A stretch of 64,000 nucleotides of DNA from the IMG/VR virus record IMGVR_UViG_3300029319_000019, positions 16,340-80,339 of that record. One strand, 5' to 3'. The notes below the pieces were generated by a model. That model did not search any database. It saw nothing but the letters and a program-made list of their open reading frames with translations, and was not told the DNA's origin. A program made the translations under genes and the position numbers. Positions 1,452 through 39,025 of the stretch are shown piece by piece. This DNA comes from a virus. How positions within the stretch are numbered: position 1 is the first letter of the stretch; every line of letters starts with the position of its first letter.

Positions 1452-3847
1452 TACAGTTTAGTTCTAATTTCGTATCCTAGCTTTGCAGCATCATTTACAA
1501 ATGTAACAAACTCTGGGCTATCTACTCTGTAAGTTACATCTCTACCTTTAGTTGGGTCAAACAATGTTACCTTATCTGATGCACCTGAGAATGAGAAAGT
1601 AGCTGAACCTGTTTCTTCACCATCTGGTCCGTATATTGCCATGTCTGCACTAGGAGCACCTGTATGTTTATGTAAGTTCATCTCCATCTGTAGTAGGTAT
1701 CCAGGAGAGTTAAAGTATTGATCCATTTGTTTGTTTCTAATATTACTATATGGTAATATTATTTCCTTACTTACATTTTTATTATTCTTATCCTTACCAA
1801 CTACTGTTAGTTGTAATGTAGGCTCACCAAATGCTGGAGTAGTATGGAATAATACATTTTTAACTTGAATCTCTTCACTACTCCATCCTAAATCTTTAAC
1901 CATTTCAGCTACAGTTCCAATCCCTCTTTGCTGTTTACCGTCCCAATAGATATTAAATGTTTTATCTAGTGGCGTAGACTTAAAGAATTCTTTTACATAC
2001 TTAGTGTTTTTTGTAACATCTTGAGGAGTCATGCCTGGCATGTTGTTAGATGCAAAGGTACCTTTAGTTAATGTAGAATTTTCCTCTAACCATCTATCTA
2101 TCTCTTTCTTGTCTGCCTTTCCTGCATCTGTTAAAGCATTTAAAGATCTTAAAACCGCAAAAGAATCAGACTTATCTCCAAACATATTTTGTACAGCTAA
2201 AGCTCTTTTATATCTATTATGATCAGGATGGCTAGGATCTTGTAATATTCTAGGATCAATCTTAGTAGAAGTTCTAAAAGGATTAACTGTTTCAAAGAAA
2301 GATTCTTCTCCATATATGTCACCTATATCATCTCTGATATTAATAAGATCTATTAGAGTTAGGCTAGGATCGTTAAGAACTTGTCTAGCTCTATCTAATA
2401 ATTCCTGACCTGTGTACTTTCCAAATTCTTGATTAAGTTTAGACTCATCAGTTATGCCAGTTGCTTCGTAAGCTCTCCTCAATCTCTCCTGTTGTATAAC
2501 GACTTGTTTTTTAATAGTCATTACTTTATATCTCATTTCTTGGAATACAGCATTATCTTTTAACTCTTCAGGTACGTTATTAGATATAATATCCTGCTCA
2601 GTAAGTTTTCTACCATCAGTTAAAAATGGAGCAGCTAAAGAGTTAACATCTTGTACAGTTTTAGTTACTGTATTAAGGTTTAAATCAATATTAGCTCCAA
2701 TCTCTGCAGACGTTCTACCACCTATATCATCAAGCTGATTAACTTCTGTAAGTTTAAGTACATTTGGAGTGCTATTTTCTAGTTCAAAATTATAATCAGC
2801 TGTCCATTTTGCTGAATATTCAACAGCGCTGTTCTGATCTACATTCTTAAACACAAACTTGTCATAAGATGTTTGTAGCTCTCTATTAATGTCTTGTTGT
2901 ATTACAGAGTTTTTAAGATAAGTTCTACGCTGTGCAGTAAGATCTTCTCCACTGCCTGTATCATTTAATAATCTTTCTTGTTCTTTTATTATATTATCAA
3001 GTCTTTGTGCTTCTTTATCGTTACCAGAATCAATTGCCTCTTGTCTTTGTTCTATTAGACCTTTAGAGTCTGGATTGTCTTCATCACCATATAATGTAGT
3101 AGATATTCTAGATCGTATCTCTTCATCACTCAAGTGGAATGTTCTTAGTTCTCCTTTTTGTTGAAATGCTGCTGCAACATCAGGGTCTTGCATTATGTTG
3201 TTAAATACACTAGCAACTCTTTCGGGACTAATCTCTTCAACATCAATACCATTAGTAACATAGAAGTTACCATCTTTACTGATTACTTTACCTTCGTTAC
3301 CATACTTTCTTACCGCAACATCTTTCATTTGCTCTGACATCATTGCTTGAATGTCAACATCGTCAACCACATTAAACCCAGAGAAGAAAGAACTTTGATC
3401 TATTGTACCATCTTCATTTTTTTGTAGTCCTGAGTATTCATGTCTAGATCTCTGCAAGGCAAGAGCTCTTGTTTCAGAGTCTATTCTCTTATCGTCATAT
3501 AGCTTATTAAGATTCTCTCTATATGCATTGTATGCTTCATAGTTCTTTTTAATAGGCTGATATTGCTGATCAAAGACTCTAGCACTTTTAGCTACATCCA
3601 TCATCATAGTTTCATAATCACCACGGCCCGCCCTGTCCATTAGTTGTTGTCTAGTACTTTGCTCTAACTGATTCTTAAGATCTTGGTCGCCTGCAAAATC
3701 TGCAGCTTGCATTTGATCTACAGCTCCTGCTAATGCATCATCAGCATTGAATGCTTGTTGAAACCTTTGTCTTTGTAGCGCATTTATCTGTACAGATCCT
3801 GGATCTCTATAAACACTTTGGTAGGGTTTTAAACTATATCTACTCAT
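1451..3847 (-). CDS. Virion cargo (ejected) protein, 798 aa
   Basis: Helical Q/D/E-rich protein starting MSRYSLKPYQSVY. Lies between the C1-like cargo gene and the giant protein, as in crassvirus cargo clusters. Confidence 0.6.
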   Translation of the reverse strand: MSRYSLKPYQSVYRDPGSVQINALQRQRFQQAFNADDALAGAVDQMQAADFAGDQDLKNQLEQSTRQQLMDRAGRGDYETMMMDVAKSARVFDQQYQPIKKNYEAYNAYRENLNKLYDDKRIDSETRALALQRSRHEYSGLQKNEDGTIDQSSFFSGFNVVDDVDIQAMMSEQMKDVAVRKYGNEGKVISKDGNFYVTNGIDVEEISPERVASVFNNIMQDPDVAAAFQQKGELRTFHLSDEEIRSRISTTLYGDEDNPDSKGLIEQRQEAIDSGNDKEAQRLDNIIKEQERLLNDTGSGEDLTAQRRTYLKNSVIQQDINRELQTSYDKFVFKNVDQNSAVEYSAKWTADYNFELENSTPNVLKLTEVNQLDDIGGRTSAEIGANIDLNLNTVTKTVQDVNSLAAPFLTDGRKLTEQDIISNNVPEELKDNAVFQEMRYKVMTIKKQVVIQQERLRRAYEATGITDESKLNQEFGKYTGQELLDRARQVLNDPSLTLIDLINIRDDIGDIYGEESFFETVNPFRTSTKIDPRILQDPSHPDHNRYKRALAVQNMFGDKSDSFAVLRSLNALTDAGKADKKEIDRWLEENSTLTKGTFASNNMPGMTPQDVTKNTKYVKEFFKSTPLDKTFNIYWDGKQQRGIGTVAEMVKDLGWSSEEIQVKNVLFHTTPAFGEPTLQLTVVGKDKNNKNVSKEIILPYSNIRNKQMDQYFNSPGYLLQMEMNLHKHTGAPSADMAIYGPDGEETGSATFSFSGASDKVTLFDPTKGRDVTYRVDSPEFVTFVNDAAKLGYEIRTKL

Positions 3848-6800
3848 TATTTATCTTCTTTTTTATCGTCCTCTTTGGTAGCAGTTGGCTTCGCAAAACG
3901 CTTGTTAAATAGCTCAGCTATGTCAGCATTTGTATATGGTTGACCTGTTCTAGGATTAATTTGATTTCTTAAGAAGTTTCTTAATCTATCTCTTTCATAG
4001 ATTCCCATATCACCAGTAGCTCTTGCTAGTCTCTCACTCGCTTGATAAGACATTGCATCACCTGCTAATCCTGCAATACCTTGCGCAAATGTATCAACTG
4101 CACCTAATCTTCTATTAGACTGTGCAATACGTTCAGCTTCTCTTGCTGCAGTATTAATTTGATTTACACGTAAAGCATTTTGTATATTCTGCGTTCTTGC
4201 TTGCATTTGCATTTGAGCTTCTCTATTTGCAATCTGAGTATTTATTCTAGACTCTTGTGCAGCAATCTTCATATCACCTTCTTGTTTACGTCTGTATGCA
4301 GACATCTTAGCAATGATACCAGCTGGTCCAATACCACTAGTTTCAATAAATCTATTTATCGCTCTATTGTCTGCTGCATTAGCTGCACGCTCTGCATTGA
4401 AGTTAACTCTATCTAGTGCAGGAGCTTTTATTCTACCAGGCGCACCCATTTGTTCTACCGGCTTGTCTTTCTTAAAGAAGGAATATGCTGCTGGTAATAA
4501 CTGTGTTACCCCTGCAGCTATTGCTAAACCTGGTACATTTCTATTAAGTCTTTTAAGAGCTTTCTGTTCTTGCTCTGTTAATTCAACATTACTCTTTGCT
4601 TTATCTATTAAAGCTTGATCCTCTTCTGAAAGCTGCTCATTAATTTGATTTTGTAAATTTAATGCACTCTGCACACCTTGATTTGGATCTACGTTTATTT
4701 CTACTAAGTCATCAAAAGGATTAGGTACTACATTCTCTGAAAGTGTATATTTATTAGGATCTATACCAGGATAAAATAGCTCTTGTCCCTCTTCTTGTCC
4801 CTCTTTCTCTTTCTTTTCTTCTTTTTTAACTTTTTTCTCTTCTTCTTTACTAGCTGGAGGAACAGCACCGCTAGGCCCTAATAAATTTAGTTCCTCACTC
4901 ATTTTATCTATACCGCTTATTGGGTTATATAAATTTATTCCCTGACTAAAGTCATCTATACCATCCATATTAAGATCTGACATTATAACATTTCCTAGTG
5001 GGTCTACACCCCCTAACTGATAGTAACCACCCGCACCTAACTTAACAACGTTAGGATTTCTACCTGCTTTCTTTTCTTGTAGCTTAGCTAGTGCATCAAT
5101 ATCTTTTTGACGTCCACCATTCTTTAGTATATCTTTATGTCTTTGTGCAAATGACTTACCTCCCATCTTTAAATGTTGTGAGAAGAAGTAATCTCCTACA
5201 CCACCTTTCTTCATGGTTACTTTATCCATAGTCTCTCCACCCTCTACCTCTGTCATAGGATCTAGCATTATGCCTCCTTGCTCATGACTTCTACCTTTAA
5301 ACTCTACAGCATCACTACCTGGTATAGGTTTCATTTTACCTCCTGGTAGTTTTACACCACCTCTTTGATATACTTTATTAAAATACTTATCCATACTTGT
5401 AGGATCTCCTGCAGCTCCTGTGCCGTATAGTGCTGGCATGTCACTAGCATCTTGCATAGGGTTAACTAAAGATACTGTTTTTAAAAGTGGTGCTGCTGAG
5501 GCCGCTCCAACTCTTAAAAGTTTAGAACCCATAAGTAAACCTTTTTTTGCAGCTTTTTTAAGACCCATCTTTTCTACAACATTGCTAACACCTGATACTA
5601 TATTATCAACTGCGCTAGGTTTTATTTGTTTTATAATTCTTTGACTAGGAGGCATTGGTATGTTAGGTCTAGGCATATTTTGCAATACTCCAGGAGCCCC
5701 GCCTGTTTGATAATACCCACCATATCTAGCAACATCCTTACCAAAGTCAAATCCAGAATACTCTCTAGCTTTTAAACTTTCCATTTTCTGTCTTTGTAAT
5801 ACTTTTGCAATTTCCCCTCTTTTCTTTCTTTCGGCTTTTGCCATCTCTTTCCTAGCCTTACCTCTTTTTACAAGACCTCCAATTCCTGACACCCCTGCTC
5901 CTATAATACCACCAATCAACGCAGTAACAGGTGCAGCAGGTCCGCCAATCATACCTCCTATACCTGCCCCTGTTCCTAGACCTTGAAGTAATGAACCAGT
6001 TGTTTCTCCTACATTCATTGTTGTAGCATCATCATCGTCTGCTAATTTTTTAACACCCATACCTGCTAAGGATGCAACCAGAGCTGGATTTAACATTGAT
6101 GCTGCAGTAGATGTGCCACCTGTAATAGAACCTGTTAAAAACTCTCCTGCTTTTGCAGCTCCAGTTCCAGCAGTTGCAGATCCTAAATTAGCTATAGATT
6201 GTTTTGCTCCGGCAGCTACCTTAGACAAACCAGTGCTTAGTTTACTGCCCCCAGATACACCCATTACCTCAAATCCCGCTGGTACTTCTGCTCCAGGTAG
6301 TATAGACAGTTCTGCTCCTGTTGCAGGATTTACAGCAAATTGCACACCCTTTGGTGCTGATGCTAGCCCCATTGATTCTGAAACTCCTTTACCATATAAG
6401 TCTGCACCTGTTTTAATTAGTGAAGGATCAGCAGTACTAGCTACCCCAACTGGCATAAAGTTACCAGCCTCATCTTTTATTTTTTCTCCTGTTTTAGGAT
6501 CTACTTTAAACTTTTTACTTTTATCTGCTAAATCTAAAACTTGTTCACCTATACCTTGAACAGTTTGCATTCGTGCTTCTTGCTTAGCTATTTCTTGCTG
6601 AGCTTCATCTTGATATTTAGTAGATTCTTGTGCTGCTTTTAAATCTTCTTCTATAGCTTTTAGTTTAGCAGGATCTGCTTCCTGATATGTAATGGAAGAT
6701 GTTTCCGGTACACCTGGTAATGTATTAGCGCCATACATAGGGGCTTGTTGTAATCCACCTGCTTGGTAGTAACCCATACGTCTCATGAATTCTTTATTAC

Positions 6801-7011
6801 TACTTTTAGGGTAACCGCCTTCTTGCATAGTATCAGCTAGTTTACCAATCTTTTTAGATTGTGCTGCATGTAGCTTAGATGCCTTAGCTAACTGCTTAGA
6901 TACTTTACTAAGAGTTTTTGACTTTCCACCTTTTAACATTCTCTTAGGCTTCTTGCCAGCTTTCTTCATTGATATTGCTATTGCTGCTTGTTGCGCTCTT
7001 GATTTTGCCAT
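3847..7011 (-). CDS. Cargo protein 1-like internal virion protein (crAss001 gp45-like), 1054 aa, with Gly-rich transmembrane-like segments and repeated xxGG motifs
   Basis: Directly downstream of the muzzle gene. Contains the G-x-SHEQGGI...EVEGGE...FS motif, a Gly-zipper hydrophobic segment (GLGTGAGIGGMIGG...GGIIGAGVSGIGG) and a C-terminal Q/N/A-rich coiled coil. Confidence 0.7.
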   Translation of the reverse strand: MAKSRAQQAAIAISMKKAGKKPKRMLKGGKSKTLSKVSKQLAKASKLHAAQSKKIGKLADTMQEGGYPKSSNKEFMRRMGYYQAGGLQQAPMYGANTLPGVPETSSITYQEADPAKLKAIEEDLKAAQESTKYQDEAQQEIAKQEARMQTVQGIGEQVLDLADKSKKFKVDPKTGEKIKDEAGNFMPVGVASTADPSLIKTGADLYGKGVSESMGLASAPKGVQFAVNPATGAELSILPGAEVPAGFEVMGVSGGSKLSTGLSKVAAGAKQSIANLGSATAGTGAAKAGEFLTGSITGGTSTAASMLNPALVASLAGMGVKKLADDDDATTMNVGETTGSLLQGLGTGAGIGGMIGGPAAPVTALIGGIIGAGVSGIGGLVKRGKARKEMAKAERKKRGEIAKVLQRQKMESLKAREYSGFDFGKDVARYGGYYQTGGAPGVLQNMPRPNIPMPPSQRIIKQIKPSAVDNIVSGVSNVVEKMGLKKAAKKGLLMGSKLLRVGAASAAPLLKTVSLVNPMQDASDMPALYGTGAAGDPTSMDKYFNKVYQRGGVKLPGGKMKPIPGSDAVEFKGRSHEQGGIMLDPMTEVEGGETMDKVTMKKGGVGDYFFSQHLKMGGKSFAQRHKDILKNGGRQKDIDALAKLQEKKAGRNPNVVKLGAGGYYQLGGVDPLGNVIMSDLNMDGIDDFSQGINLYNPISGIDKMSEELNLLGPSGAVPPASKEEEKKVKKEEKKEKEGQEEGQELFYPGIDPNKYTLSENVVPNPFDDLVEINVDPNQGVQSALNLQNQINEQLSEEDQALIDKAKSNVELTEQEQKALKRLNRNVPGLAIAAGVTQLLPAAYSFFKKDKPVEQMGAPGRIKAPALDRVNFNAERAANAADNRAINRFIETSGIGPAGIIAKMSAYRRKQEGDMKIAAQESRINTQIANREAQMQMQARTQNIQNALRVNQINTAAREAERIAQSNRRLGAVDTFAQGIAGLAGDAMSYQASERLARATGDMGIYERDRLRNFLRNQINPRTGQPYTNADIAELFNKRFAKPTATKEDDKKEDK

Positions 7012-7013
7012 AA

Positions 7014-10000
7014 TTATCTATAGAATTTTTTTGCAGCCACGTTGGTGGAATACAAATTTATTAATTTTTTTGTAACATTGTCGTATTTTAAGCGAATTCC
7101 TATCCACTTATCTCTGAACTTTCTTTGTTTGTGCCATGATTTACCTGCATCTATAAAATTATTGTTTATAGTTTCAGTCATTCCATCAATATTAAACATT
7201 GGATTTGCATTTACTTGACCATCTGTAACTTCTACACCTGTTGTTATAGTACCTGCAACGTTAGCACCAGGTACACCAAAGTTACTGCCAGTGAAAGCTC
7301 CTGTGTAAATAGTATCATTACTAGTAGTTAATTTAGCTAAGTCTCTAAATTTATTTATCTTCCACTCATTACCTACCTGTCTAGTGTTTATCATATACTC
7401 TATGGGTTGTTCATCAGATATTTGATGTGTAGTGTATACGTAGAAACTATTGAAGCCATGGTCATTTGCAAGAACATTATGAGAATCTTCTACATCTACC
7501 ATATAATCAAAGCTGTAAAATATTTTATCAGAATCTTTACCTGAGTTATATATAAACTCAAACTCTGTTAAATAATTTTCAGTATAAAATCTACCTCTAT
7601 TAATTTCAGAACTATGAACCCAAACATTTCCATAACCTGGTGTAAATGATATAAGAGATTCACCGTGTCTACTGTATATATACGGTATGTAATCATGGAA
7701 TGAAACCCATACATTAAGTTCTACATCATACGAAATAGTCCAACCTGTTGATTCAAAATATTCAGTATCACTGTAATCAATAGGAGTTACTTCAAGCGTA
7801 GAGGCTCCAGTATCGCCTACCTCTCCTATACTAAACACTTCATTTACTATTTCAAATTGATTAGTGGTACTATTAAATTGTGCAATAGGGTACACAAGTT
7901 GTGATAACTGAGCAGCAAGTAAAAGTTCTAATAAATCCTCTGTTGGTTTTAAATCTCTCTTAGTTAAAAGTATCCTGTCATATCTTTCATCATACTCTGA
8001 GTGAAATCCTATACCAAGTATTGGATTATCAATGTCTGATGGCACACCATATTTTTCTAATGTAAAAGGTATGTTGTCTTGGAACCAGCTTTCCATACCC
8101 TGCTTGCCTATGTCATACAACTGATCTTTAAATAAAAATACTCTACGGTTTCTATAATCTAAAGTGAAGTATCCATGTTTAGTTACCATAGAAACCCATT
8201 GAGATTGTGTGCCCCCATATCCATATTTAGTTTGTATAATCTCATCTGGGTCTTGTGCAAATATGTCTCCACTACCTACAAAAGATTCTGTGCCATCTGA
8301 CATTTGCAGGGATTGTTTACCTTTAGTTCTAAATAAACTATCTTCTGTATGCAAGTATAGTAGATTGTTTAATGATAAAAGTTTCCATAAATCTCCTCTG
8401 TTACGCGGCAGGTCTTTAAATTGTAATGCTAAGAATACTCTATAGTTATCTATAAGACTTGTATTGTCTGCCTTTGCAGATCTTTGCACCCTTGTTTTAA
8501 ATATCTCTGGATCGGCCTCTCTAATAGGATAAGGCATTGGAGGTTTAATATCTGCTACTCCCAATGTATATGGATGAGAGTATAGCATAGCATCTTCTTT
8601 TGTTAAATCAACATCTGCTTTAAGATCTAACATTCTTTTAGCAGGGCTACCTGGGAAATAAGCACTTTCTTTATCTTTGTCATGTCTAAAGTTAATGTTA
8701 TCAGTTGACTCACATATTGTATAAATAAGAGTTTTATGATCCCATGGGGCACTAAGGTTATGCTCTGGTCTATGAGATATTCTATATCCATGTCTACATA
8801 AATATGTATCACCTCCCCACACTTCACCAGTCTCTCCAAAAACAGTAAATTCTGTAGCGTTCCCGTTTGCGTCTTCAACATAAGCACCAGGTTCTGTCCC
8901 ATCGTCGTTTAAAATAAAATTTTGTAAATCTTCTCCTAATACTTCATAACCTGTCCATATTAACTCTTGTGTATCAAAAGATAAATACATATCAGTTTTA
9001 AAAGCATGTAGATTATGAATTTGCAATTGAACTGGAGAAGGCGGATTTTCATAATAAAATTGTTGGTCAGGATTATTAGGATCTCCTAGTACAGGATCTT
9101 CAGGATTAATATGCCAAGGAGCGCCTGTACCTGCATCAGACCACCCTCCTTGATTAGGTTGCCTATTTGCTAAGTACCCTAACATTATACTAGATTCTCC
9201 CCCTAAATTATAGATACGTTGACCAAACCCTAAAGACCTTCCATCAAATATAGAATTACCTCGTAAATATGTTTTACATTTTTCTCTTATAGGGTAGTGT
9301 CTAAAGTTTGGTGCTATACTCTGTTGTTGATAATTAGTTCCTATATGAAAACTCTTGAAACTAGAATTTAATATACATTTAGGCCCGTCCCCTGCAGTAT
9401 AAGGAGTGTTACCTTGAAGATTTTCACCAAGGTTGTAATGAACATCTTCATAAGAGTGAAAAGGCCCTCCAAAAGATAACATGTCAACAGTATACTCGTG
9501 ACTTGTATGTGTTCCAGGCACTAAACTATTTTTTCTACTTAATAGATAAAAATCATGAAAAGTTGCAGAATTAATTGCCCCATTGTACAAAGCACCTGAT
9601 GCTAGTATAAAATCTTCTGAGGCATTAAGAGTTTGTACACCATCATCTATGGTCCCTAATGTATCTATAGCCGCGTCACCAGCACAGTCAGATAGATCTA
9701 TATCAAATTGCGAAATATTTTTTTTCAAAAGGTCTTGTCCAAGTATTCTTCTATTACTATGTTTTCTTTCAGCATAGTATATTCTAAACCCTTGCACTTT
9801 GTCTGCAATATCTACTGGTATTTTAATATCTTTAAACCTTACCCCTAAAGGTCTTACTTCATGTGCTATCTGTCCTGCTAGGTTAGTATCAGTAACCTGA
9901 GCTTGCCATATAAAAATTCCGTATGTAACTTGGCTTGGCCATGTGCCTAAATCACCTTGACCTGGTAAATTACCACTTCCAAAGAAATCAACACTATTGT

Positions 10001-12176: not shown

Positions 12177-13132
12177 TAGTAATCTCTATTTAACTCTTCT
12201 CTATGATTTAAGTATTCAAAGAAACAAGCATGTGCATTGATGTCTGGTATAAGTCTAACCCACTGATTCATGTAAGATTCGTATCTTTCAATGTCAGGAT
12301 AGTTAGCAGCGTTTCTAGCTTGCGTACAATAGTACTTCCATTTTGAATCTGCAAAGTTATAGTCTATCCTATTATTAGGTTTATCATAACCACCCAATAA
12401 CATTTGTTTGTATATATACCAAAACATAGCTTCTTTATAACTTATATCGTCTGGTATCATTGGAAAGCATTCATCATCAATAGGAAAAGCTGTATAGCTT
12501 ATACATACTTTACCGCTAGCAAAAGATGTTTTTATGTAATCACAATCTATTATATAGCTTTCGTTATTTGTAGCATGTTCGTTAATACAATCATCGCAAT
12601 GCATAGAGCTATGGAAAGTGCTAGCTCCATAACGTAATGGTTCTAAGCCAGCACCTCCACCTTTAGCATTAAAATATATCCCCTCTAAAACGGTTATCCT
12701 ACTAATTAGCTCTCTAAGCTCTGCTACATTTGCTTTGTATTGTGTATCATATGTGTTTAAATCTGCATTAGTAATGTTAGCTCCATTGTTAGCTACATCA
12801 TTTTCTAAAGTCTCATTATATTGTGCTATGTCAGCTCTAAGTTTTCTAACTTGCTCTGTAAGAACATCAAGCTCATCACTTGAAGAAGTACCAACAGTTC
12901 CATTAACTGCTACTTGATTTATAAAATATAAGTCTCCAGGTAAACATGCTTTATGATCTTCTATTGTAAGCACGCATTGTTTTTGACACAGTTGTGAAGC
13001 TGCCCCAATGTGCTCTAAAGCTTCTCCTATCCATTCTACTGCATCATCTACCCAGTCTGCATGATTAGGTCTTAGATCACGCATAACCTTACGGATAATC
13101 ATTTTACTTGATATGTTCTTATATACTGCCAT
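12176..13132 (-). CDS. Tail ring protein R1 / tail tubular protein (P22 gp4-like fold, crAss001 gp43-like)
   Basis: EWIGEALEHIG, IKTSFASGKVCISY..FPID...PMIPD..SYKEAMFWYI and W..YC.QA motifs. Immediately upstream of the muzzle gene. Confidence 0.8.
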   Translation of the reverse strand: MAVYKNISSKMIIRKVMRDLRPNHADWVDDAVEWIGEALEHIGAASQLCQKQCVLTIEDHKACLPGDLYFINQVAVNGTVGTSSSDELDVLTEQVRKLRADIAQYNETLENDVANNGANITNADLNTYDTQYKANVAELRELISRITVLEGIYFNAKGGGAGLEPLRYGASTFHSSMHCDDCINEHATNNESYIIDCDYIKTSFASGKVCISYTAFPIDDECFPMIPDDISYKEAMFWYIYKQMLLGGYDKPNNRIDYNFADSKWKYYCTQARNAANYPDIERYESYMNQWVRLIPDINAHACFFEYLNHREELNRDY

Positions 13133-13134
13133 AT

Positions 13135-13404
13135 TTATCTCCAGTTACTACAGCTACCACAATTCCATGCGCGTAGCGATTTATTAATTCTTGAGTTAGG
13201 ATCTCTTTGTCCTTTAGCTCCTGTACGTTTAGCCTTCATCCCACACATTCTACTGCAGAAACTAGAACGTCTTTTGTTACCTTTCTTTTTACTAGGAGCT
13301 TTTAAGTTACCCCCTGTTGCTCTATTATAAGATCGTCTACCTGCAGCGTTTAGTCCACCGCTAGGATTCTTGCCTGCTTTTCTTTGCCATGCTGGTGTTG
13401 CCAT
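13135..13404 (-). CDS. Small highly basic protein (89 aa), probable DNA-binding internal virion protein
   Basis: K/R-rich. PAWQRKAGKNPSGGLN...SFCSRM.GMK...DPNSRINKSLRAWNC is a type I recall from marine phages (DUF6321-like, unverified). Tightly packed in the operon. Confidence 0.7.
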   Translation of the reverse strand: MATPAWQRKAGKNPSGGLNAAGRRSYNRATGGNLKAPSKKKGNKRRSSFCSRMCGMKAKRTGAKGQRDPNSRINKSLRAWNCGSCSNWR

Positions 13405-13406: not shown

Positions 13407-13697
13407 TTATATTCTTGCTGGTCCAGGTAGTATAAATCCACCACCCTTCGCACGTTTAACTTTCTTTTTTCTTTTGTACCTACTAACTCTTCCTTTAGTA
13501 TTCTTTTCTCTCTGAGCTCTAGCCTTCTCTGATGCAGATAGTTCAGACCACGTAGATGGTGTATCCTTAGATATACGTCTAGTAGGTCTAAATGTGTTCT
13601 CACCTCCACTGTAGTCTTTCTTACCACTAGGTGTTCTCCATTTTTCTTTAAACCAACGCTTTAGTCTAGCGCCTGCAGCAGTCTTTCTTACAGCCAT
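13407..13697 (-). CDS. Small highly basic protein (96 aa), DUF5872-like
   Basis: LKRWFKEKWRT...RPTRRISKDTP.T.SEL...KA...K motif. K/R-rich, ends KRAKGGG. TAATG coupling. Confidence 0.65.
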   Translation of the reverse strand: MAVRKTAAGARLKRWFKEKWRTPSGKKDYSGGENTFRPTRRISKDTPSTWSELSASEKARAQREKNTKGRVSRYKRKKKVKRAKGGGFILPGPARI

Positions 13698-13897
13698 TAC
13701 TTCTTCTTTAATTTGCGACCACTGCCATATATGTCTGACATCAGACTGGTAGCTAGTCCACCTTTTTCTTTTTTACTTTTATTTCCCCAGTTAGCAGCTC
13801 CAACCTTACGACACTTAGCCATCGCACCACTTCTGTATGCAGATGTCTTAGGACCGTATCGAGCTACAACTTTATGATAACACGCGTCTTTTGGCAT
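13697..13897 (-). CDS. Small highly basic protein (66 aa)
   Basis: KDACYHKV.ARY...SAY.SGAMAKCRKVG motif, followed by KEKGG. In operon. Confidence 0.65.
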   Translation of the reverse strand: MPKDACYHKVVARYGPKTSAYRSGAMAKCRKVGAANWGNKSKKEKGGLATSLMSDIYGSGRKLKKK

Positions 13898-13899
13898 CT

Positions 13900-14364
13900 C
13901 TAATTCTTTTTAAATTTTAAATAATCTAGTTCATCTAACTCCTTCAGTTTACCTTTGTTACCCTTCACTCCTCGTGTAGCATCAAATCTGTAAACTGTTT
14001 TGTTCTTTACTTTGCACTTACCTTTACGCCAGTAGTATTTAAGATACTCACTGTCTGTATAGTATATGTGCCATTTGACACCGTCTCCAGTGTCCTTGTT
14101 GTAAAGCTCACTACCATTTTCTAATAGCTCAGCTTTATACTTGTTTGATTCGCCCCAGTCTATACCAGGGTTTCTAGGATCTCTCTCCATTCTTACGACG
14201 GAAAGAGTTGATAGGTTATACCCCATGTTAAACTCTTTACCGTCTAGAATGTAATCTATAATCATCATGTTAAACTCACTGCATATATCCACAAAAGTTT
14301 GCTTTGATATATTGCTGTCAGTCTCTACATAATCATTGTATATATGAGAGATGGTGTGTTGCAC
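13900..14364 (-). CDS. IHF/HU-like DNA-binding protein (crassvirus IHF subunit)
   Basis: Helix (FVDICSEFNMMIIDYILDG) followed by beta-arm (KEFNMGYNLSTLSV). Conserved position between ring protein genes. Confidence 0.7.
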   Translation of the reverse strand: MQHTISHIYNDYVETDSNISKQTFVDICSEFNMMIIDYILDGKEFNMGYNLSTLSVVRMERDPRNPGIDWGESNKYKAELLENGSELYNKDTGDGVKWHIYYTDSEYLKYYWRKGKCKVKNKTVYRFDATRGVKGNKGKLKELDELDYLKFKKN

Positions 14365-14813
14365 TAGTCTCTATCTAAGTCAAATACACCTGGCTCGATG
14401 AATCCACCCATTTGGTACATCATCTTTTTACCGCCCATTCCCATCTTTTTCTTTCCACCCATCATTTTCTTCTCTCCACCTTTCTTCATCATCGTTTTAG
14501 CCATAGCTGGGCCTTTCTTGCTTATCTTTTTGATAGCTTTGACAATTTTTCTTTTCCTTTTCTTTTTCGCTCTTTCTTCCTGTCGCATCTCTTTTTTAAC
14601 GTTCTTCTTCTCATCTTCAGTCAATGGTCTCGCAGTCTTAGGACTACCACCCATCTGCATCTTACCTTTACCGTCAGCTGCAAAGAAAGGAACCTTCTTA
14701 CCATCTTTCATGACCATCTTCAGCTTACCGCCGTCCTTCATCATCTTCTTTTTACCACCGTACATCATCATCTTTTTCTTAGATCCTCCGTACATCATTT
14801 TTTTCTTATTCAT
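14364..14813 (-). CDS. Lys/Met-rich low-complexity basic protein with tandem M-x-GG motifs
   Basis: KKKMMYGG-type repeats and a KMVMKDGKKVPFFAADGKG module. ATG start at 14813 preferred over the TTG at 14819. Confidence 0.75.
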   Translation of the reverse strand: MNKKKMMYGGSKKKMMMYGGKKKMMKDGGKLKMVMKDGKKVPFFAADGKGKMQMGGSPKTARPLTEDEKKNVKKEMRQEERAKKKRKRKIVKAIKKISKKGPAMAKTMMKKGGEKKMMGGKKKMGMGGKKMMYQMGGFIEPGVFDLDRD

Positions 14814-14837
14814 TTTCAAAAATATTTATAATTATAA

Positions 14838-15527
14838 TTATCGTTTTGGTGCAGGTCTACCCTGACCTTGATCCTGTAATGTATCATTAGTAGTATCATT
14901 TACTGATGACGATAACATCATAAGCTCTCCACTCATAATACCTTGTGTTATTGTTTGTAACATATCCATTGGTATAGGAAAGTCTGAATCACTATCATAG
15001 CAATCAGATCCATCACAATCAAATAGAGCAACATCTTCTGGATCTTCAAATATTCCTCTCACATTTATAAATTTCAAACCATCTGCATTGTATACATACA
15101 AATAATCTTCAATCATATAAGCTTTCATTTTATTTTTAGTGTACTTATCAAAAGGTAACCATTGAACTGTATGTGATTCTACTATAGGTATATTAGCTTT
15201 ACCATCAATAGCTCCTACATAAGTAACTGCATCCTTAAAATTAAATCTAACTGTTTTTGGTATCTTCTTAACTGTTCTATATACAGCACACTCTGTTGGT
15301 AAATTGCAACATTTAGATGCATCTACCTTTATTAATTCTAAACATCCTAAATCTTGTTCTAGGTGTCTAGTAATCATACCGTTTCTAGCAAAGTCCCTAC
15401 GTATGAGCATAGCTCTGTAGTACTTTACATTAAATTTAATTTGACTAGTAGATATATGATCATTATTGCTAGATCTACCTCCTCTAACTAAATTTAAAAT
15501 ATTGTATGAAATTTCATTTAATGTCAT
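14838..15527 (-). CDS. Tail ring protein R2 (crAss001 gp40-like)
   Basis: MTLNEISYNI...YRAMLI..D, QDLGCLELIKVD, YLY, VRGIFEDPE and FPIP motifs of crassvirus ring proteins. Confidence 0.8.
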   Translation of the reverse strand: MTLNEISYNILNLVRGGRSSNNDHISTSQIKFNVKYYRAMLIRRDFARNGMITRHLEQDLGCLELIKVDASKCCNLPTECAVYRTVKKIPKTVRFNFKDAVTYVGAIDGKANIPIVESHTVQWLPFDKYTKNKMKAYMIEDYLYVYNADGLKFINVRGIFEDPEDVALFDCDGSDCYDSDSDFPIPMDMLQTITQGIMSGELMMLSSSVNDTTNDTLQDQGQGRPAPKR

Positions 15528-33014: not shown

Positions 33015-34178
33015 TTATTCATTCTTTGTCACTTCTCCAAGCGCTGTTCTATATCGCGGATCAGAGATAGCTTCTAAAATACTACTCACTGTCATAGCAA
33101 CAATCTCTTGATGAGTGTGCTCTGGCAGTTCGCAATCAATCCCCAAAGATAAGGATATTTCTTTCGGCTTTCTTATGTACGTTATTTTTAAGGTATCTAT
33201 TATAAATATATCACTAGTGTATACATCTATAGACCTTCCTCTAATTGTTGTCAATGGAGAGGTATGTTTTGTTGTATTAAACGGGTCACTTAAAAGCGCA
33301 AATATGTCGTCTTGTTGAGAGAATCTGTTTCCCTCTTGTATTCTCGCTGAGTACTCTATTGGCTCTCTTCTTTCAGCATATGTTATATCCACAACCTGTG
33401 CTGCCTGTGCTGTAGGTGCTGTAGCTGTTGCTATAGGAGTTCCTACTATGTGACTAACACTTCCTGCGGATAAATCAAAGTTAAACCAGTCATGTTGATC
33501 TGTATCTACTACAACAATAAACTGGCCTGGAAAATTTAATGTTTCATACTCTTCCCAGTATATTTCAAACCCAGGTCCTGGGTGGTCTAATATATCCTGT
33601 ATAACTGCTTGCACATTTGCAGGATAACTTTCTGGTGTCCATCCTGTAGCTACAAAATCTGATGATGGATTCCATACTACAGCAGATGTAGGATCAACTC
33701 CTGTAGTATCAGCAACCATATCTATAGCAGTAATAAATGCTGTAGAGTCATTAGCTGCATTATTCAATACAAAATTATTTAAGTCTAGTGTAAAGAATGA
33801 TACTGCTGGGGGATTAACTAATTCAAAACTTATAGGTTTACAATTATTAATCCATATTTTAGACATTTGATTTACTAGATACATATAATCTACAGGTAGT
33901 TGAAATGTATCTACAAATATTTTTGGTTTTAACTGCTCCTTAAATGTTACAGGAGCTTCATACTCACGCACAAGTGTACGTAAATCATCTATTCTTTTTT
34001 GTGATTCTTCAAAACCTTTTCTGTACATGTTATTTCTACCGTACTTGGTGTTGATGAATCTAAACATGTTTTTGTTTAATTCAATATCTATCTCTTCAGA
34101 TAATAAACTGTCAGCTTGGAGTGAATTAATCTTATCCACTCCTTGCTGTACAGCTATATGCATTTCAGTTACATTCAT
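33015..34178 (-). CDS. Tail ring protein (R3/R4-type, crAss gene 74-like) with central insertion
   Basis: EMH....DK......EEID..LN...GFEESQKRIDDLRTLV and YIRKP....DCELPEHTHQEIV motifs. Confidence 0.8.
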   Translation of the reverse strand: MNVTEMHIAVQQGVDKINSLQADSLLSEEIDIELNKNMFRFINTKYGRNNMYRKGFEESQKRIDDLRTLVREYEAPVTFKEQLKPKIFVDTFQLPVDYMYLVNQMSKIWINNCKPISFELVNPPAVSFFTLDLNNFVLNNAANDSTAFITAIDMVADTTGVDPTSAVVWNPSSDFVATGWTPESYPANVQAVIQDILDHPGPGFEIYWEEYETLNFPGQFIVVVDTDQHDWFNFDLSAGSVSHIVGTPIATATAPTAQAAQVVDITYAERREPIEYSARIQEGNRFSQQDDIFALLSDPFNTTKHTSPLTTIRGRSIDVYTSDIFIIDTLKITYIRKPKEISLSLGIDCELPEHTHQEIVAMTVSSILEAISDPRYRTALGEVTKNE

Positions 34179-34987: not shown

Positions 34988-35051
34988 AATATAGTACTTT
35001 TAAAGTTTTAATAGTGGATGTAAAGTATAACTCCCCAATATCTTAAAGTAA

Positions 35052-35082: not shown

Positions 35083-35131
35083 AACCAAAAACCAATATAT
35101 AGACTTGCGAATGCACGCTTCTTTAGTCTCT

Positions 35132-36580
35132 TTATGAAGCAGTACACGTAATGTCTAAAGACGTATCAAATCTACGTAAGCAGATACCTGCAGTCTTTAA
35201 CATGTGTACGCTCGCACCGTCAACATCTGACGCTCTAGTATCAGTAGCCGCGAATCCTCGTGGAACTACAGAACCAGCAACGCACCAACGCATCATCTCA
35301 CGACCTTTCTTAGAGATCATTGTAAGGTTAGCTTGTCCGTCATAGTTAGACTGGTCAACAAATACCATACGGTAAGACTCTAATGAGTAACCAGTAACTG
35401 GGTGCTTTTCACGAGCTTGTGCAACAGGACCATGATCAAATAATGGAATCTTAACCACATTGATCACATGACCATCTACGTGCTCGTAAGTAGTGAAGTA
35501 ACCAGTTAATCCTAAGTTACGTCCGCTACCTGTGATGAATCTGTTCTCACCACCTACTTTGAAAGTATTAGATGCGAAGTGATTTTTAAGAGCTTCATCA
35601 AACTCTCTTGCTCCACCAGTACCAGTAAATAATGTTACTTGCTTCTGGTTTGCATCCGTCATTTGGTAGAATAAATCACCAATGATGTTCTTCAACTTAG
35701 TTTCAGTCATAGTTGAATAAGTATCAGTGTTTACGATTTGCTCGAATAAACCTGGGCCTACAATTACAGGCTGTCCATTCTCATCCTTCATAAACGTGTT
35801 ACCGTTTGAATCATAAGTTTTTTGTCCATACCAGTAGTACATCTCACACTCTTCTTTAAAGTCAAGCATGTGGTTGTACTCTTCATAGTCCATCCAAAGG
35901 TTAGTAGTACCACCACCTTTAGTTGGTAAAGTAAAGTTCGCTACGTAATCTTTAGCATGTCCTGACATGTGGTAAGATTTACGAACTGTAGTAATTTTGT
36001 TACGAACTTTTCCTGGAGCTTGCCAGTTAGAAGCGTTACCTCTTGAGAAGTCAACTCCTACTGGTGCATACAATTGAGCCCAAAGATCACCTGCAGTAAA
36101 ACCTGAAGTTAATACTGTAGCTGCTGCTGGGTTTACTAATTGTAATGTATACTCCCATCCTGAACCTGCCGCATAAGGTGTAGGTTCTTTCATGATACGA
36201 GCTAGTTCACCTTTGTTGTTTACTAACACGTATGGAAATACGAATCGTTTGTCAGGGAAAACCAATGTAAAAGTTGATCCTCCTTGTCCTAAGTTTGCTC
36301 CTGCATTAGTCACAGCCACTGGACGCGTTCTCAATTTGTGAGTAGCCACACGATATTCGTACTCTAAACGGTCAATTGATTGAACGTTTCCAGCTCCTTC
36401 AGTTAAGAAAGATAGTGGAAAACGCTTATCATCTTTGCCCGCTAGGTGCGTAATAATCGGAGATAGTTCAGTTGGCTTAGACAGTAATGCATTAGCTAGA
36501 CTGTTCATGTCTGTCATTTGCGAATCATTATAAAACGTCTTGTGTACGCTAATGTTCGTTCCGGTCATTTGTCCTGCCAT
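35132..36580 (-). CDS. Major capsid protein (HK97 fold, crassvirus type), 482 aa
   Basis: FPLSFLTEG, G.GLFEQI, TGTGGAREFD.A, LTGYFTTYEHVDGH, P.FD.G..A....HP.TG..LES motifs. Strong high-expression codon bias. Confidence 0.92.
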   Translation of the reverse strand: MAGQMTGTNISVHKTFYNDSQMTDMNSLANALLSKPTELSPIITHLAGKDDKRFPLSFLTEGAGNVQSIDRLEYEYRVATHKLRTRPVAVTNAGANLGQGGSTFTLVFPDKRFVFPYVLVNNKGELARIMKEPTPYAAGSGWEYTLQLVNPAAATVLTSGFTAGDLWAQLYAPVGVDFSRGNASNWQAPGKVRNKITTVRKSYHMSGHAKDYVANFTLPTKGGGTTNLWMDYEEYNHMLDFKEECEMYYWYGQKTYDSNGNTFMKDENGQPVIVGPGLFEQIVNTDTYSTMTETKLKNIIGDLFYQMTDANQKQVTLFTGTGGAREFDEALKNHFASNTFKVGGENRFITGSGRNLGLTGYFTTYEHVDGHVINVVKIPLFDHGPVAQAREKHPVTGYSLESYRMVFVDQSNYDGQANLTMISKKGREMMRWCVAGSVVPRGFAATDTRASDVDGASVHMLKTAGICLRRFDTSLDITCTAS

Positions 36581-36626
36581 TATTATCTAATTTATAAAGT
36601 TAAGTTTTGCATTTTAAAATTGCCAT

Positions 36627-37754
36627 TTATATGTTAAGATCTAAATCATCCAAGTCTACTTGTTTACTCTTACGTCTTTGACGTCCTCGTGCACTTTTAA
36701 CTCTTTCTTCATTTCTGGATATTCTATCTCTTAATGATTTAGCATTTGATGTTCTAGCTTTTGTTTCTACCAATTTTGATAAATCAAAACCTTTGAACAT
36801 TAAATAATCAATCGCGAGTTTAGTCTCCATCTCTGCTTCAGAATGATCTAAGTCTCGTTGTGTGCGACCATCGTTAGTCACAGGGTTTGAGATATAATCA
36901 AAAAACTTTGACTTCTCTCTCTTTGGAATAGAGATACCTGCAAAATCATCAGTACTATCGATGGCTTCATACACACCATTCCAAAATTCTTCTTGCTGTT
37001 CTTCTTGTTGAGCTCTTTGTTGTTTTTGCTGTTCAACCAATTGACTTCTTGATTGTTCTTGCATCTTACCTAAAGCTACTCTAGCAGATTCAGCTTTCTG
37101 GTATAATTTACCAGTATCTTCATAATCAGTCAGTAGCTCATTTATAAAATTCTGATCGTGTCCTTTTGTTGCAAAGTAATCAGATAAAATAGCTTTTTGA
37201 CTTCTTATGTCATCTTCTTCAAAACTAACTTGGTTATAATCTAGTTGCGGATCATATGCCTGCATAAAATCTCTAGATTCCCCTCCGTTAAGAACGTATT
37301 CTAGATGTTTTTGTACTAGTGGAAAGTTCTCAAACAAATTATTTAGTTGATCTTCCGCTATCTGTTGTCCAACATCTTGTGTCATTGCTAAAAGACCTTC
37401 TTCAGTATCATCATACTCTTCTTCAGTCTCAAAGCCTAGTTTATCTAGTATTGAAGAAACTACTGTAGAAGTAACAGCTTCTCTGTCATCTTCTTCTTCA
37501 TCGTCATCTTCATACTCTTCGTCTTCTTCGTAGTCCTCATCCTCTTCATATTCTTCCTCTTCTTCTTCTTCAACTTCTTCTACGTCTTCAGACTCTTCTA
37601 ATTCTTCTGCATCCGCATCTAACTCTTCAGCTTCTGCGCTTGGGGTTTCAACTGCTAAATCTTCAGCAACTTCACCTCCTGGATTTCCTCCATCTAAAAC
37701 ATCGTCAAATGAAATATCATCCAAACCGATGCCTTCTTCTTCTGGTTCTATCAT
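36627..37754 (-). CDS. Acidic scaffold-like protein upstream of MCP (crAss gene 77-like)
   Basis: Very D/E-rich N-terminus, coiled coils and canonical position. Confidence 0.7.
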   Translation of the reverse strand: MIEPEEEGIGLDDISFDDVLDGGNPGGEVAEDLAVETPSAEAEELDADAEELEESEDVEEVEEEEEEEYEEDEDYEEDEEYEDDDEEEDDREAVTSTVVSSILDKLGFETEEEYDDTEEGLLAMTQDVGQQIAEDQLNNLFENFPLVQKHLEYVLNGGESRDFMQAYDPQLDYNQVSFEEDDIRSQKAILSDYFATKGHDQNFINELLTDYEDTGKLYQKAESARVALGKMQEQSRSQLVEQQKQQRAQQEEQQEEFWNGVYEAIDSTDDFAGISIPKREKSKFFDYISNPVTNDGRTQRDLDHSEAEMETKLAIDYLMFKGFDLSKLVETKARTSNAKSLRDRISRNEERVKSARGRQRRKSKQVDLDDLDLNI

Positions 37755-37775
37755 AATCTATATATTAATTTTTTA

Positions 37776-37783
37776 CAAAAATA
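37776..37783 (-). promoter_or_regulatory. Bacteroidota sigma-70 -7 box (TATTTTTG) upstream of scaffold/MCP
   Basis: Exact TAnnTTTG, 21 nt upstream of the ATG at 37754. Confidence 0.6.
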
Positions 37784-37846
37784 GTTAAATATGTGTGTAT
37801 TGGTACACTCACATATGTTTTTGGATATGTCTTTATTATATATCAC

Positions 37847-39025
37847 TTATGCTCTTTTTCTAGACCTTCTAATAGCCTCTTTACCTTTAGTAAATATACT
37901 TGCCACCTGTCTTTTACCCATTACTTTGGCTCTTTGTTCGCCTACCGTAAGGATTTGGATCTTCCTAGCAAACGGTTTATTAACTCTTTTAACCTTAGCC
38001 ACAGTAGCGCGAGCGTCAGCAGGTGTGGCAAAACGTATACCAACAGTATCCTTTGGATTTTCATCCGTATATAATCTTCTACCACTTCCTTTTGGTTTTT
38101 TACCTGTTCCTGTTACTGGATCTTTACCATGCTTAGATCTATAGCCACCTTTTTTATATATTTTACTAGAGTATTTATCTATACTAATAGGATCACCCGC
38201 TGCACCAGTACCATATAAAGCTGGCATATCGCTAGCATCTCTAGATATGTCTACTGGTAATATTGTAGTAAAACCTGATTTTGCAGTTTTTGCTAAAGGT
38301 TTTACAACTTTGTAAATATCTTTACCAAATTTCTTACCTTCCCTTATCAACTCATCTACTTTTGCTTTTTCTTTTCTATAAAATATCTTTAAAGCTTTTT
38401 TAGCAACCTTATCACCTTTGGCTGCATCTTTAACTGCTTTAACCATTCCTTTATAATATTTTGGCTTTTCAACTACCCTTTTTAGATAATCAACTAAGTT
38501 TTGTCCAGCAGTTCCTTCAAAAGGTCTAGTCTTCTTCATACTAGTATATAATGGTTCTCCAGCCCCTGCTGCAGAACTTATAACTTCAAGCTTGTCTTTA
38601 AAACCTCCTTTTTGATAGGCTGGTGTCTCTATAACTGTACCACTCTTTGGTCCTGTAGGTAAATCTTTGATGCCTGGTGGTACATTCTGATACGATTGTA
38701 CTAAATGTCCTTGGTCATCCACCTTTGTAATATTGATAGGCACTCTCATACCTTCAGTATTGAATGATGTATTAGCTGGTACATCTGGAAAAACCATGCT
38801 AGCACCTATGTTACCCATGGCTTGCTGTTCACGTAAACCTACTTGTTGTTCTTGTGGAGTTTGTGCAACTAGCATATTCTCTTGCTTAGCCTGTGCCTCT
38901 GCTTGTAACATTGCTGGTACATTAGCGCCCTGGTTAGCCATTTGATACAAGTCTAATATGCTACCTTCAAATCCAGTAGACCTAGCCATGTCTAATATTT
39001 CTCTACGCATTTGGTTATTCAGCAT
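37847..39025 (-). CDS. Modular basic protein (392 aa) segmented by YxKGG motifs, probable internal virion protein
   Basis: Modules end in AYQKGG and IYKKGG. Shares a 32-aa segment with cargo protein 3847..7011. Lies between portal and scaffold. Confidence 0.7.
   Translation of the reverse strand: MLNNQMRREILDMARSTGFEGSILDLYQMANQGANVPAMLQAEAQAKQENMLVAQTPQEQQVGLREQQAMGNIGASMVFPDVPANTSFNTEGMRVPINITKVDDQGHLVQSYQNVPPGIKDLPTGPKSGTVIETPAYQKGGFKDKLEVISSAAGAGEPLYTSMKKTRPFEGTAGQNLVDYLKRVVEKPKYYKGMVKAVKDAAKGDKVAKKALKIFYRKEKAKVDELIREGKKFGKDIYKVVKPLAKTAKSGFTTILPVDISRDASDMPALYGTGAAGDPISIDKYSSKIYKKGGYRSKHGKDPVTGTGKKPKGSGRRLYTDENPKDTVGIRFATPADARATVAKVKRVNKPFARKIQILTVGEQRAKVMGKRQVASIFTKGKEAIRRSRKRA

Follow-up and report, generated by a model that had tools for sequence, protein, structure and literature searches.

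For the polyvalent proteins of phages and conjugative elements, which include MuF-anchored effector fusions, packaging, injection and (auto)proteolytic release have been proposed (Iyer et al. 2017, PMC5512222). We analysed a stretch of 64,000 nucleotides (positions 16,340 to 80,339 of the IMG/VR record IMGVR_UViG_3300029319_000019; hereafter the window) in which a short motif, [YM]xxGG, recurs in a set of late proteins and separates them into modules. The record, 80,339 bases long and estimated to be 93% complete, belongs to an uncultured marine crAss-like phage, of which the window covers the late and early region. A first-pass annotation, made from the sequence alone, had proposed that the motif divides internal or basic virion proteins into shuffled modules and acts either as a packaging tag or as a cleavage site. 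We describe the motif here as a conserved joint of virion-cargo "polyvalent" proteins that is most likely a processing site, a reading to which we assign a probability of roughly 0.4.

The proteins of the window resemble polyvalent proteins in that a carrier domain linked to head genes is followed by a fast-changing string of unrelated domains, in that relatives carry ART-PolyVal, lysozyme, SLT and HExxH modules, and in that the gene with the carrier domain lies among virion and packaging genes, next to the portal gene. They differ in their carrier, which is DUF192-like and not MuF, in the single conserved joint of five to seven residues between modules and in the nature of the modules, many of which are tiny basic domains and not enzymes; the window's own copy consists of three non-enzymatic modules without a recognisable enzyme. 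The words glycine, linker and DUF192 are absent from the text of PMC5512222. The literature that we searched on DUF192, DUF6321, DUF5872, DUF3008 and Gly-Gly processing in phage virions held no functional description, in agreement with the first-pass annotation, and no description of the joint or of these modules; the combination of joint and DUF192-like carrier is not described there for polyvalent or cargo protein systems.

The prohead processing site of phage T4 is L/I-x-E. A capsid targeting sequence is removed from the T4 internal proteins (IPI-III, Alt) by the prohead protease gp21, the cleavage logo of which was named LIE-9 (PMC9026906). Like these proteins, those of the window are variable and basic and, judging by their genes, would be head-internal and injected, and a short N-terminal peptide that heads many different proteins (MAKSRAQQAAIAISMKKAGKKPK followed by MxxGG) may be the counterpart of the portable T4 peptide that ends in the processing site. 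Unlike in T4, where the site is Glu-based and an S77 protease is encoded, S77 and S78 are absent from the genome at E ≤ 1, and joints are also found internally and ahead of C-terminal tails. In adenoviruses, adenain matures pVII, pre-Mu, pVI and pTP at (M/I/L)XGG|X or (M/I/L)XGX|G, with Gln tolerated at P4 (PMC4246237). In both systems basic proteins, DNA-condensing in adenoviruses and probably DNA-associated here, and short peptides are delimited by a site of the hydrophobic-x-Gly-Gly type. Of the adenain consensus, the joint matches the Gly-Gly and the hydrophobic residue behind it; Y/M stands one position further out, and Q/K is at P4, where Gln has been documented in relaxed adenain sites. 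The adenovirus capsid is also where small basic peptides are set free, as would happen in the phage head if joints are cut. In contrast to adenoviruses, Y/M is the fifth and Q/K the fourth residue ahead of the presumed cut, no protease of clan CE is found (C5 and C48 are absent at E ≤ 1), and the virus is a tailed phage of an unrelated realm with a bacterial host. Double-glycine leaders, the consensus of which is LSxxELxxIxGG, are cut by C39 peptidase domains of ABC exporters. They share with our proteins a short N-terminal leader ending in Gly-Gly, but the LSxxELxxIxGG consensus is absent here, no C39 domain was detected at E ≤ 1, joints are also internal or C-terminal, and there is no export context.

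The cargo protein C1 (gp45) of the crassvirus crAss001 was described by Bayfield et al. 2023 (PMC10172136), and its residues 425-552 form the portal-bound domain in the structure determined by cryogenic electron microscopy (cryo-EM; PMC10172136). The C1-like gene of the window comes after the Ring 1 gene and a muzzle-like gene, which is the position of the gp45 gene, and its product aligns with gp45 in weak collinear BLASTP patches (best E 0.017) that cover a Gly-rich hydrophobic segment, an SHE..GG stretch and the C-terminal region. The label "C1-like" of the first-pass annotation thus has synteny and weak similarity on its side, but gp45 has no [YM]xxGG, only three FxxGG (residues 17, 260 and 559) and no basic N-terminal modules. 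Moreover, unlike the window, crAss001 has no DUF192-like gene after the portal gene, and its gp21 is a head fibre. Because gp45 lacks [YM]xxGG, the joint is not a general trait of Crassvirales. The FxxGG copies at 260 and 559 shortly follow the cryo-EM-resolved segments 214-245 and 425-552 (PMC10172136), and the FxxGG of gp45 may represent, in a gut crassvirus, a weak equivalent of the joint.

The joint and the post-portal protein family

All motif copies listed in the first-pass annotation were present. The C1-like protein carries MLKGG (residue 25), MQEGG (62), YQAGG (82), YQTGG (434), YQRGG (548), MKKGG (600) and YQLGG (664), and the Lys/Met-rich protein p151 carries MMYGG twice, MKDGG, MQMGG, MKKGG, MGMGG and YQMGG; the start codon used in the first-pass annotation for p151 (ATG at 14813) yields the same protein, shorter by two residues. 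In p392, encoded at 37847-39025 on the minus strand by the gene after the portal gene, YQKGG (137) and YKKGG (290) were found. Looser variants occur in two small open reading frames (ORFs), of which 13407-13697 ends in RAKGGGFILPGPARI and 13697-13900 contains KEKGGLA.

These counts were compared with 20,000 residue shuffles per protein, and in a second variant the positions of GG were kept fixed. The seven copies in the C1-like protein compare with a mean of 0.84 and were never reached in the full shuffle (GG fixed: mean 1.80, P = 0.0017), and the same holds for the seven copies in p151 (mean 0.53; GG fixed: mean 1.69, P = 0.00015). For p392 the two copies are weak evidence alone (mean 0.22, P = 0.019; GG fixed: mean 0.34, P = 0.043), yet both sites are conserved in relatives. 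The feature is therefore real and non-random, and it exceeds what the Gly, Lys and Met content would give. Copies were absent or isolated in the major capsid protein, the terminase, the replication proteins and three proteins of the virion RNA polymerase block. The motif is confined to basic or internal late proteins, as had been noticed by eye. The portal protein itself starts with MYLGG (41256-41270, minus strand), which is found in about 46 of 80 relatives, the others starting with MGYDKIP or MHVGG; this copy is probably incidental.

The motif is better written as [YMF]-[QK]-x-G-G-[hydrophobic]-[KR]. In its extended form, K/R at positions -5 and -4 is followed by Y/M/F, Q/K, any residue, the two Gly, a hydrophobic or aromatic residue and then K/R; Lys and Arg are enriched at -5, -4, -1, +2 and +4 around GG, and the motif is concentrated in proteins with 13-29% Lys.

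The post-portal gene lies directly downstream of the portal gene and upstream of the putative scaffold and major capsid protein genes, both in the window and in related loci. For the comparison, 80 viral loci were fetched with a portal query, and long contigs found with the portal were used for the late genes. In all 80 loci the gene after the portal opens with a homologue of p392 residues 1-136, the N-domain. It matches the Pfam family DUF192 (PF02643) with 29.7 bits at a cut-off of 27, as do 46 of 55 relatives, and its Atlas model resembles the DUF192 fold with template modelling (TM) scores of 0.58-0.60. Helices 1-50 reach a predicted local distance difference test score (pLDDT) of about 95 in the AlphaFold2 model of whole p392, the N-domain modelled alone has a mean of 58.6, and the DUF192-like part is of low confidence in the AlphaFold models. 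A predicted complex of portal and N-domain scored 0.00 in two runs, which counts neither for nor against contact, and a search of the PDB sequences with the A1 profile found nothing (best E 0.61).

The N-domain ends in the anchor joint, in which none of 35 aligned diverse copies departs from Y137, G140 and G141, and alignability is lost right behind the GG. A profile search of 1.84 billion representatives with the N-domain returned 369 clusters. Among the best 150 listed, the domain is N-terminal in nearly all (the few other cases look like truncated or N-terminally extended gene calls), and protein lengths range from 119 to 1,855 residues. The motif stands at the domain end in 143 of these 150, with Y in 76, M in 65 and F in 2 and with [QK] at the second position, and the [YM] definition of the first-pass annotation was thereby recovered independently. 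What follows the anchor joint is unalignable and spans 6 to more than 1,400 residues, and the joint is retained in members with a tail of only 6-14 residues behind it.

Domains recognised in the extensions of relatives are ART-PolyVal (locus L070), Phage_lysozyme2 (L080, P0174), SLT (L054), YkuD and DUF2272. In addition, HExxH occurs in the extensions of 22 of the 150 representatives (P0150-P0299), where fewer than one is expected by an estimate from residue frequencies; these modules are not recognised by Pfam and are candidates for new zincin-like peptidases of polyvalent proteins. Judged by analogy, the post-portal architecture is that of a polyvalent, presumably injected protein with a DUF192-like carrier instead of MuF. 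A terminal GG with a tail of 5-20 residues (mean 11; 43% K/R) closes 85 of the 143 members, compared with an expectation of 14%, and the tails after the last GG fall into conserved families. Several tail families (P0150, P0151, P0157, P0163, P0181 and others) have paired Cys and an aromatic last residue (IRKCKYGCW, YKSKVCW).

Very close relatives differ here by whole modules. Where portals are 94-99% identical, post-portal proteins of 239, 240, 246, 295, 325 and 392 residues were nevertheless found, the junctions between the differing parts being located at the motif. In L005-L008 (portal 94-95% identical) the anchor joint continues directly into module 3 of p392, and in L001 and L002 a different module replaces the middle module. 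In the locus set, 75% of internal [YFM]xxGG copies lie within 8 residues of a homology breakpoint, compared with 26% of random positions, and the control patterns [YMF]xx(not G)G and KK had no such association. Among the 150 representatives, the starts of high-scoring segment pairs peak in the 10 residues before a joint (0.26-0.29 per 5-residue bin versus about 0.05) and their ends in the 15 residues after it (0.33-0.50 versus about 0.2). It is thus at the joints that modules come and go, are exchanged or end up in separate genes, and the coincidence of module boundaries in homologues with GG that the first-pass annotation had predicted was found. According to the AlphaFold2 model of whole p392, both of its joints fall within stretches of pLDDT < 50, and the confident units are residues 1-50 and 190-245, the latter at 84-92; the joints lie in segments that are predicted to be disordered, between independently conserved units.

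Codons within the motif vary as they do elsewhere (TAT/TAC 27/12, all four Gly codons). A 32-residue cassette that ends in a joint occurs in both the C1-like protein and p392, and 25 of its 32 residues are identical; 14 of these 25 are specified by different codons, and 74 of 96 nucleotides agree. The cassette is also found in L013, L086 and P0159 and is possibly a common docking peptide. Varied codons, the alternation of Tyr with Met and the 14 synonymous differences of the cassette show that it is the protein, and not a DNA word, that is under selection.

Modules and gene context in the window

The C1-like protein has no PHROGs or Pfam match. Its domain that resembles the portal-bound domain of gp45 is bracketed by YQRGG (5356-5370) and YQLGG (5008-5022) and contains MKKGG (5200-5214). 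Module MAKSRAQQAAIAISMKKAGKKPKR is absent from the near relative L085, in which module KSKTLSKVSKQLAKASKLHAAQSKKIGKLADT is N-terminal; in L086 the latter is internal, behind the portal-binding-like domain, and the KVSKQLAKASK module is relocated. Among contigs that match the window at 88-96% identity in their Ring 1, DUF5872, DUF6321 and IHF-like products, the protein is only 47% identical, and its length among near relatives is 1054, 1077 or 1357 residues. In L084 a LysM domain is inserted behind the first module. In L086 the gene consists of two ORFs that are split exactly at the YQTGG of the window, each product retaining the joint and a tail or leader of 9 or 13 residues.

The genes for the small Lys-rich proteins lie between the ring genes R2 and R1. 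One of them is p151 (151 amino acids; 29% Lys, 15% Met, 15% Gly), near relatives of which are 38-50% identical and 151, 199 or 246 residues long. Its hairpin-like module (KLKMVxKDGKKVPFFAADGKGK) and its acidic tail recur in more than 100 small K-rich proteins, and in some proteins MMYGG is the very start or copies of the motif follow one another at intervals of 8-10 residues. In the p151 relatives P0019, P0025 and P0029 a mini-module KPDYLD[FM]D[KG]DGNKKE[SP]MK stands between joints; its DxDxDG is calcium-site-like, and it was also seen on viral contigs of up to 364 kb (loci L169-L239).

The stand-alone DUF6321 protein of the window has its counterpart as the C-terminal end of eight PHROG families (99-928 profile positions). 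In P0315, MAKSRAQQ...MKNGG is fused to DUF6321 exactly at the start point of the window's stand-alone protein, and the DUF6321 protein of L086 has an extra YRDGGFLEPPVENIFE tail. In L084 the homologue of the 66-residue basic protein is fused to a further basic segment that bears MKNGG. The tail of the DUF5872 protein resembles the GGFIEPGV of p151. The acidic tail YQMGG-FIEPGVFDLDRD recurs on otherwise differing small basic proteins of this crAss-like clade; a degenerate copy, GGGFILPGPARI, is on the DUF5872 protein (13407-13450, minus strand), and YRDGG-FLEPPVENIFE is on the DUF6321 protein of a relative (L086:1821-2129). By its sequence and distribution the acidic tail looks like a shared address tag.

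Many modules were also found in unrelated phages. The MAKSRAQQAAIAISMKKAGKKPK peptide with MxxGG forms the N-terminus of many small proteins that differ in the rest (LysM, DUF6321, Cys-rich), and a related helix is C-terminal in other phages. Viral contigs with the hairpin module have no other protein in common with the phage of the window; their motif-bearing K-rich ORFs are found either close to an HK97-type head gene and to baseplate genes, or flanked by terminase and portal, or following very large proteins without PHROGs annotation that we take for internal proteins. In these unrelated loci [YM]xxGG reaches 5.6 times the expectation in K-rich ORFs and 1.25 times in other ORFs, the ORFs that brought the loci in being excluded from both counts. 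In one unrelated phage a 110-residue protein with six joints around a KIKMVEKDGKKVPFFAADG module is encoded between large terminase and portal (L146:9923-10255).

Module 3 (GTGKKPKGSGRRLYTDENPKDTV...RAKVMGK...) ranks with the most highly conserved small viral proteins that we have encountered; it has no Pfam family but is represented by at least 8,000 clusters at 90% identity, mostly stand-alone proteins of 94-103 residues that are 84-91% identical. It stands alone in L090 and as gp40 of the Pelagibacter phage HTVC033P at 77% identity, and it is present and in the cyanomyoviruses P-TIM68, Bellamy and S-SM2 at 41-45% identity. Because module 3 is conserved across unrelated phages, a universal target is suggested. 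HTVC033P is an HMO-2011-type podovirus of SAR11 (PMC9038755). Its gp36-gp42 form a tandem cluster of a stand-alone DUF6321 protein (gp36), a DUF5872-like protein (gp39), module 3, a KKASALHKRQSK helix and a WSARKAQ helix without joints between them, gp41 corresponding to module KSKTLSKVSKQLAKASKLHAAQSKKIGKLADT and gp42 to module MAKSRAQQAAIAISMKKAGKKPKR. The first-pass annotation had placed such stand-alone small basic ORFs in unrelated marine phages and regarded the inter-motif segments as self-contained units, and both points are borne out by modules that elsewhere stand alone, are fused or are rearranged; each module named there has a stand-alone form in HTVC033P. Because the HTVC033P modules stand alone without joints, joints appear where modules are concatenated.

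In the searched collection of cultured and uncultured phages, no record exceeds about 34% identity to the portal of the window. Searches of cultured phages by tblastn with the C1-like protein and with a 20-kb stretch gave no match, and when viral contigs were scanned by pattern with the C1-like protein, no relative was recovered; relatives were reached through the portal-found long contigs. The 375-residue product encoded between the post-portal and major capsid protein genes has no match in Pfam or PHROGs, but among the named Atlas clusters scaffolding proteins come nearest to it, with weak scores (0.82-0.83), and it is likely the scaffold.

Table 1. Joints, modules and neighbouring genes in the window (aa, amino acids)
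Feature	Position	Strand	Remarks
C1-like cargo protein	3847..7011	-	1054 aa; modules separated by seven [YM]xxGG joints
Portal-bound-like domain	5023..5355	-	resembles portal-bound domain of crAss001 gp45; SHE..GG and DYFFSQHL align with gp45 ~448-490
Cassette DASDMPALYGTGAAGDP...YQRGG	5356..5451	-	32 aa, ends in joint; second copy in p392 at 38144-38239 (-)
Module KSKTLSKVSKQLAKASKLHAAQSKKIGKLADT	6829..6924	-	between joints MLKGG and MQEGG (6814-6828)
N-terminal module MAKSRAQQAAIAISMKKAGKKPKR	6940..7011	-	followed by joint MLKGG (6925-6939)
Muzzle-like virion protein	7014-12176		PHROGs
CrAss_Ring_1	12176-13132		Pfam
DUF6321 small basic protein	13135..13404	-	stand-alone; Pfam E 2.7e-22
DUF5872 small basic protein	13407..13697	-	ends in KRAKGGGFILPGPARI; Pfam E 5.8e-13
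66-aa basic protein	13697..13900	-	with KEKGG
p151	14364..14819	-	Lys/Met-rich; seven joints
p151 acidic C-terminal tail FIEPGVFDLDRD	14367-14402	-	behind YQMGG
p151 hairpin-like module KLKMVMKDGKKVPFFAADGKGK	14661-14726	-	flanked by MxxGG
CrAss_Ring_2	14838-15527		Pfam
CrAss_Ring_3_4	33015-34178		Pfam
Major head protein	35132-36580		PHROGs
375-aa product	36627-37754	-	between post-portal gene and major capsid protein gene; putative scaffold
p392 module 3 (GTGKKPKGSGRRLYTDENPKDTV...)	37850..38143	-	joint-fused here
p392 second joint YKKGG	38144..38158	-	within low-confidence stretch 250-332
p392 middle module	38159..38602	-	helical core ~175-246 and cassette; absent from near relatives
p392 anchor joint YQKGG	38603..38617	-	end of N-domain
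p392 conserved N-domain	38618..39025	-	residues 1-136; three-helix bundle and DUF192-like part
Portal	39015-41270	-	PHROGs
Large terminase	41349-43340		PHROGs

Proposed processing at the joint and its alternatives

Of the interpretation in the first-pass annotation, the non-random occurrence, the marking of boundaries and the shuffling of modules stand, whereas the tag and cleavage roles stay proposals. Phages whose capsid proteins are unrelated share these joints and modules, which disfavours a tag that is read by a phage-specific capsid receptor. Cutting at the joint is what we infer by analogy from the site-like pattern, the short leaders and tails and the fission of a gene at a joint. Under this reading, the carriers would be the DUF192-like N-domain next to the portal, the C1-like protein and the small Lys-rich proteins of the R2-R1 region. 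The units strung on them would probably be DNA-associated basic mini-domains (DUF6321, DUF5872, the GTGKKPKGSGRRLYTDENP module, the KLKMVxKDGKKVPFFAADG hairpin and the AKSRAQQAAIAISMKKAG helix) and, in relatives, cell-wall and ADP-ribosylating enzymes, together with short terminal tags. The post-portal protein would be an ejected polyvalent protein whose N-domain serves head incorporation as MuF does elsewhere. Endoproteolysis after Gly-Gly would free the modules and strip leaders and tails, as in the T4 internal proteins and the adenovirus core precursors, by a protease that would still be unrecognisable by its sequence.

Several results weigh against processing. Pfam scans of about 38 of the roughly 62 ORFs of the window (all late ORFs tested and ten others) revealed no protease, six-frame searches of the 93%-complete genome for Peptidase_C48, C5, C39, S78, S77 and MPTase-PolyVal found none at E ≤ 1, and a scan of the genome for HExxH was negative, so that a cleavage system argued by analogy has no candidate protease there. 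The DUF192-like N-domain was sought in the flanks of the unrelated joint-bearing phages and was absent, and because the head genes of these phages are unrelated as well, no shared enzyme is in sight. Cutting at MMYGG starts or at motifs spaced by 8-10 residues would yield tiny peptides. For crAss001, which is alone among crassviruses in having a virion structure and mass-spectrometric data, no processing was reported (PMC10172136), and its gp45, as stated, has no [YM]xxGG. Finally, it is gene position and homology only that would place the cargo proteins in the virion.

A serious contender, which we hold to be possible if somewhat doubtful, is that the joint stays uncut and works as a hinge and as a short linear motif with a universal binding partner, for which the packaged DNA would be the simplest candidate and an acidic scaffold in the prohead another. 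Tyr, Met or Phe would act as a wedge, the flanking Lys would supply charge and the Gly-Gly would form a tight turn, so that modules are tethered, co-condensed and co-ejected. The Lys/Arg enrichment around GG and the Lys-rich composition of the motif-bearing proteins agree with such a hinge, as does the lack of a detected protease, and a DNA partner fits the function of joints and modules in phages with unrelated capsid, portal and terminase genes. The MMYGG starts and closely spaced motifs fit multivalent binders, and the conserved families of the tails behind the last GG argue that these are functional and not discarded spacers. However, the strict Gly-Gly with defined residues at five or six positions exceeds the specificity of the basic low-complexity motifs that are known to bind DNA. 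Stand-alone genes for the same modules have no such motif between them, where a DNA-binding element would also help, and one family of post-joint tails (FIEPGVFDLDRD) is acidic and hence not DNA-binding. Because of the site specificity and the leader and tail logic at the termini, we rank processing slightly ahead of an uncut hinge.

It is improbable that the motif is a footprint of module shuffling, i.e., a junction that recombination left or that promotes it and that is a neutral flexible linker in the finished protein, for which the His boxes and Gly islands in the tail-fibre genes of T-even phages would be a parallel. Joints do coincide with indel and swap junctions between very close relatives, and the proteins are hypervariable next to neighbours that are 88-96% identical. 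But the codons of the motif are as varied as elsewhere, the alternation of Tyr with Met (76 versus 65) requires two or three base differences, and the cassette differs at 14 synonymous sites, so that there is no conserved DNA word on which to recombine; a DNA-level recombination signal was rejected on this codon variety. A neutral linker would also not retain Y/M, Q/K and GG, and the joint is kept where only a tail of 6-14 residues lies behind it. Chance occurrence of [YM]xxGG in low-complexity proteins rich in Gly, Lys and Met, which the composition of p151, the 20 GG pairs of the C1-like protein and the marginal count in p392 might suggest, is scarcely credible and is refuted by the shuffles, by the conservation of motif positions across hundreds of clusters and by control patterns that are unassociated with breakpoints.

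A wider form of the processing reading is, on balance, unlikely. It would hold that unrelated marine tailed phages use a Gly-Gly-directed maturation like that of adenoviruses and giant viruses, through an unrecognised protease, with polyproteins cut at [YM][QK]xGG into DNA-condensing peptides, address tags and injected effectors, and that the joint is a universal plug between phages of Bacteroidota, SAR11 and cyanobacteria and perhaps giant viruses.

No parts of the phage particle are understood as poorly as the internal and ejected virion proteins, which are also a main battleground between phage and host. Should the joints be cut, they would represent the first described Gly-Gly-type maturation in tailed phages, within the literature searched and general knowledge, and would imply an unknown protease. 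If the joint is functional, foreign proteins could be loaded into phage heads by means of it, as a portable handle of natural origin. It would also provide a simple rule by which cargo and DNA-associated proteins of uncultured ocean phages can be recognised from sequence, among them some of the small viral proteins that are most abundant in marine metagenomes, and it would explain the strain-level diversification of such proteins.

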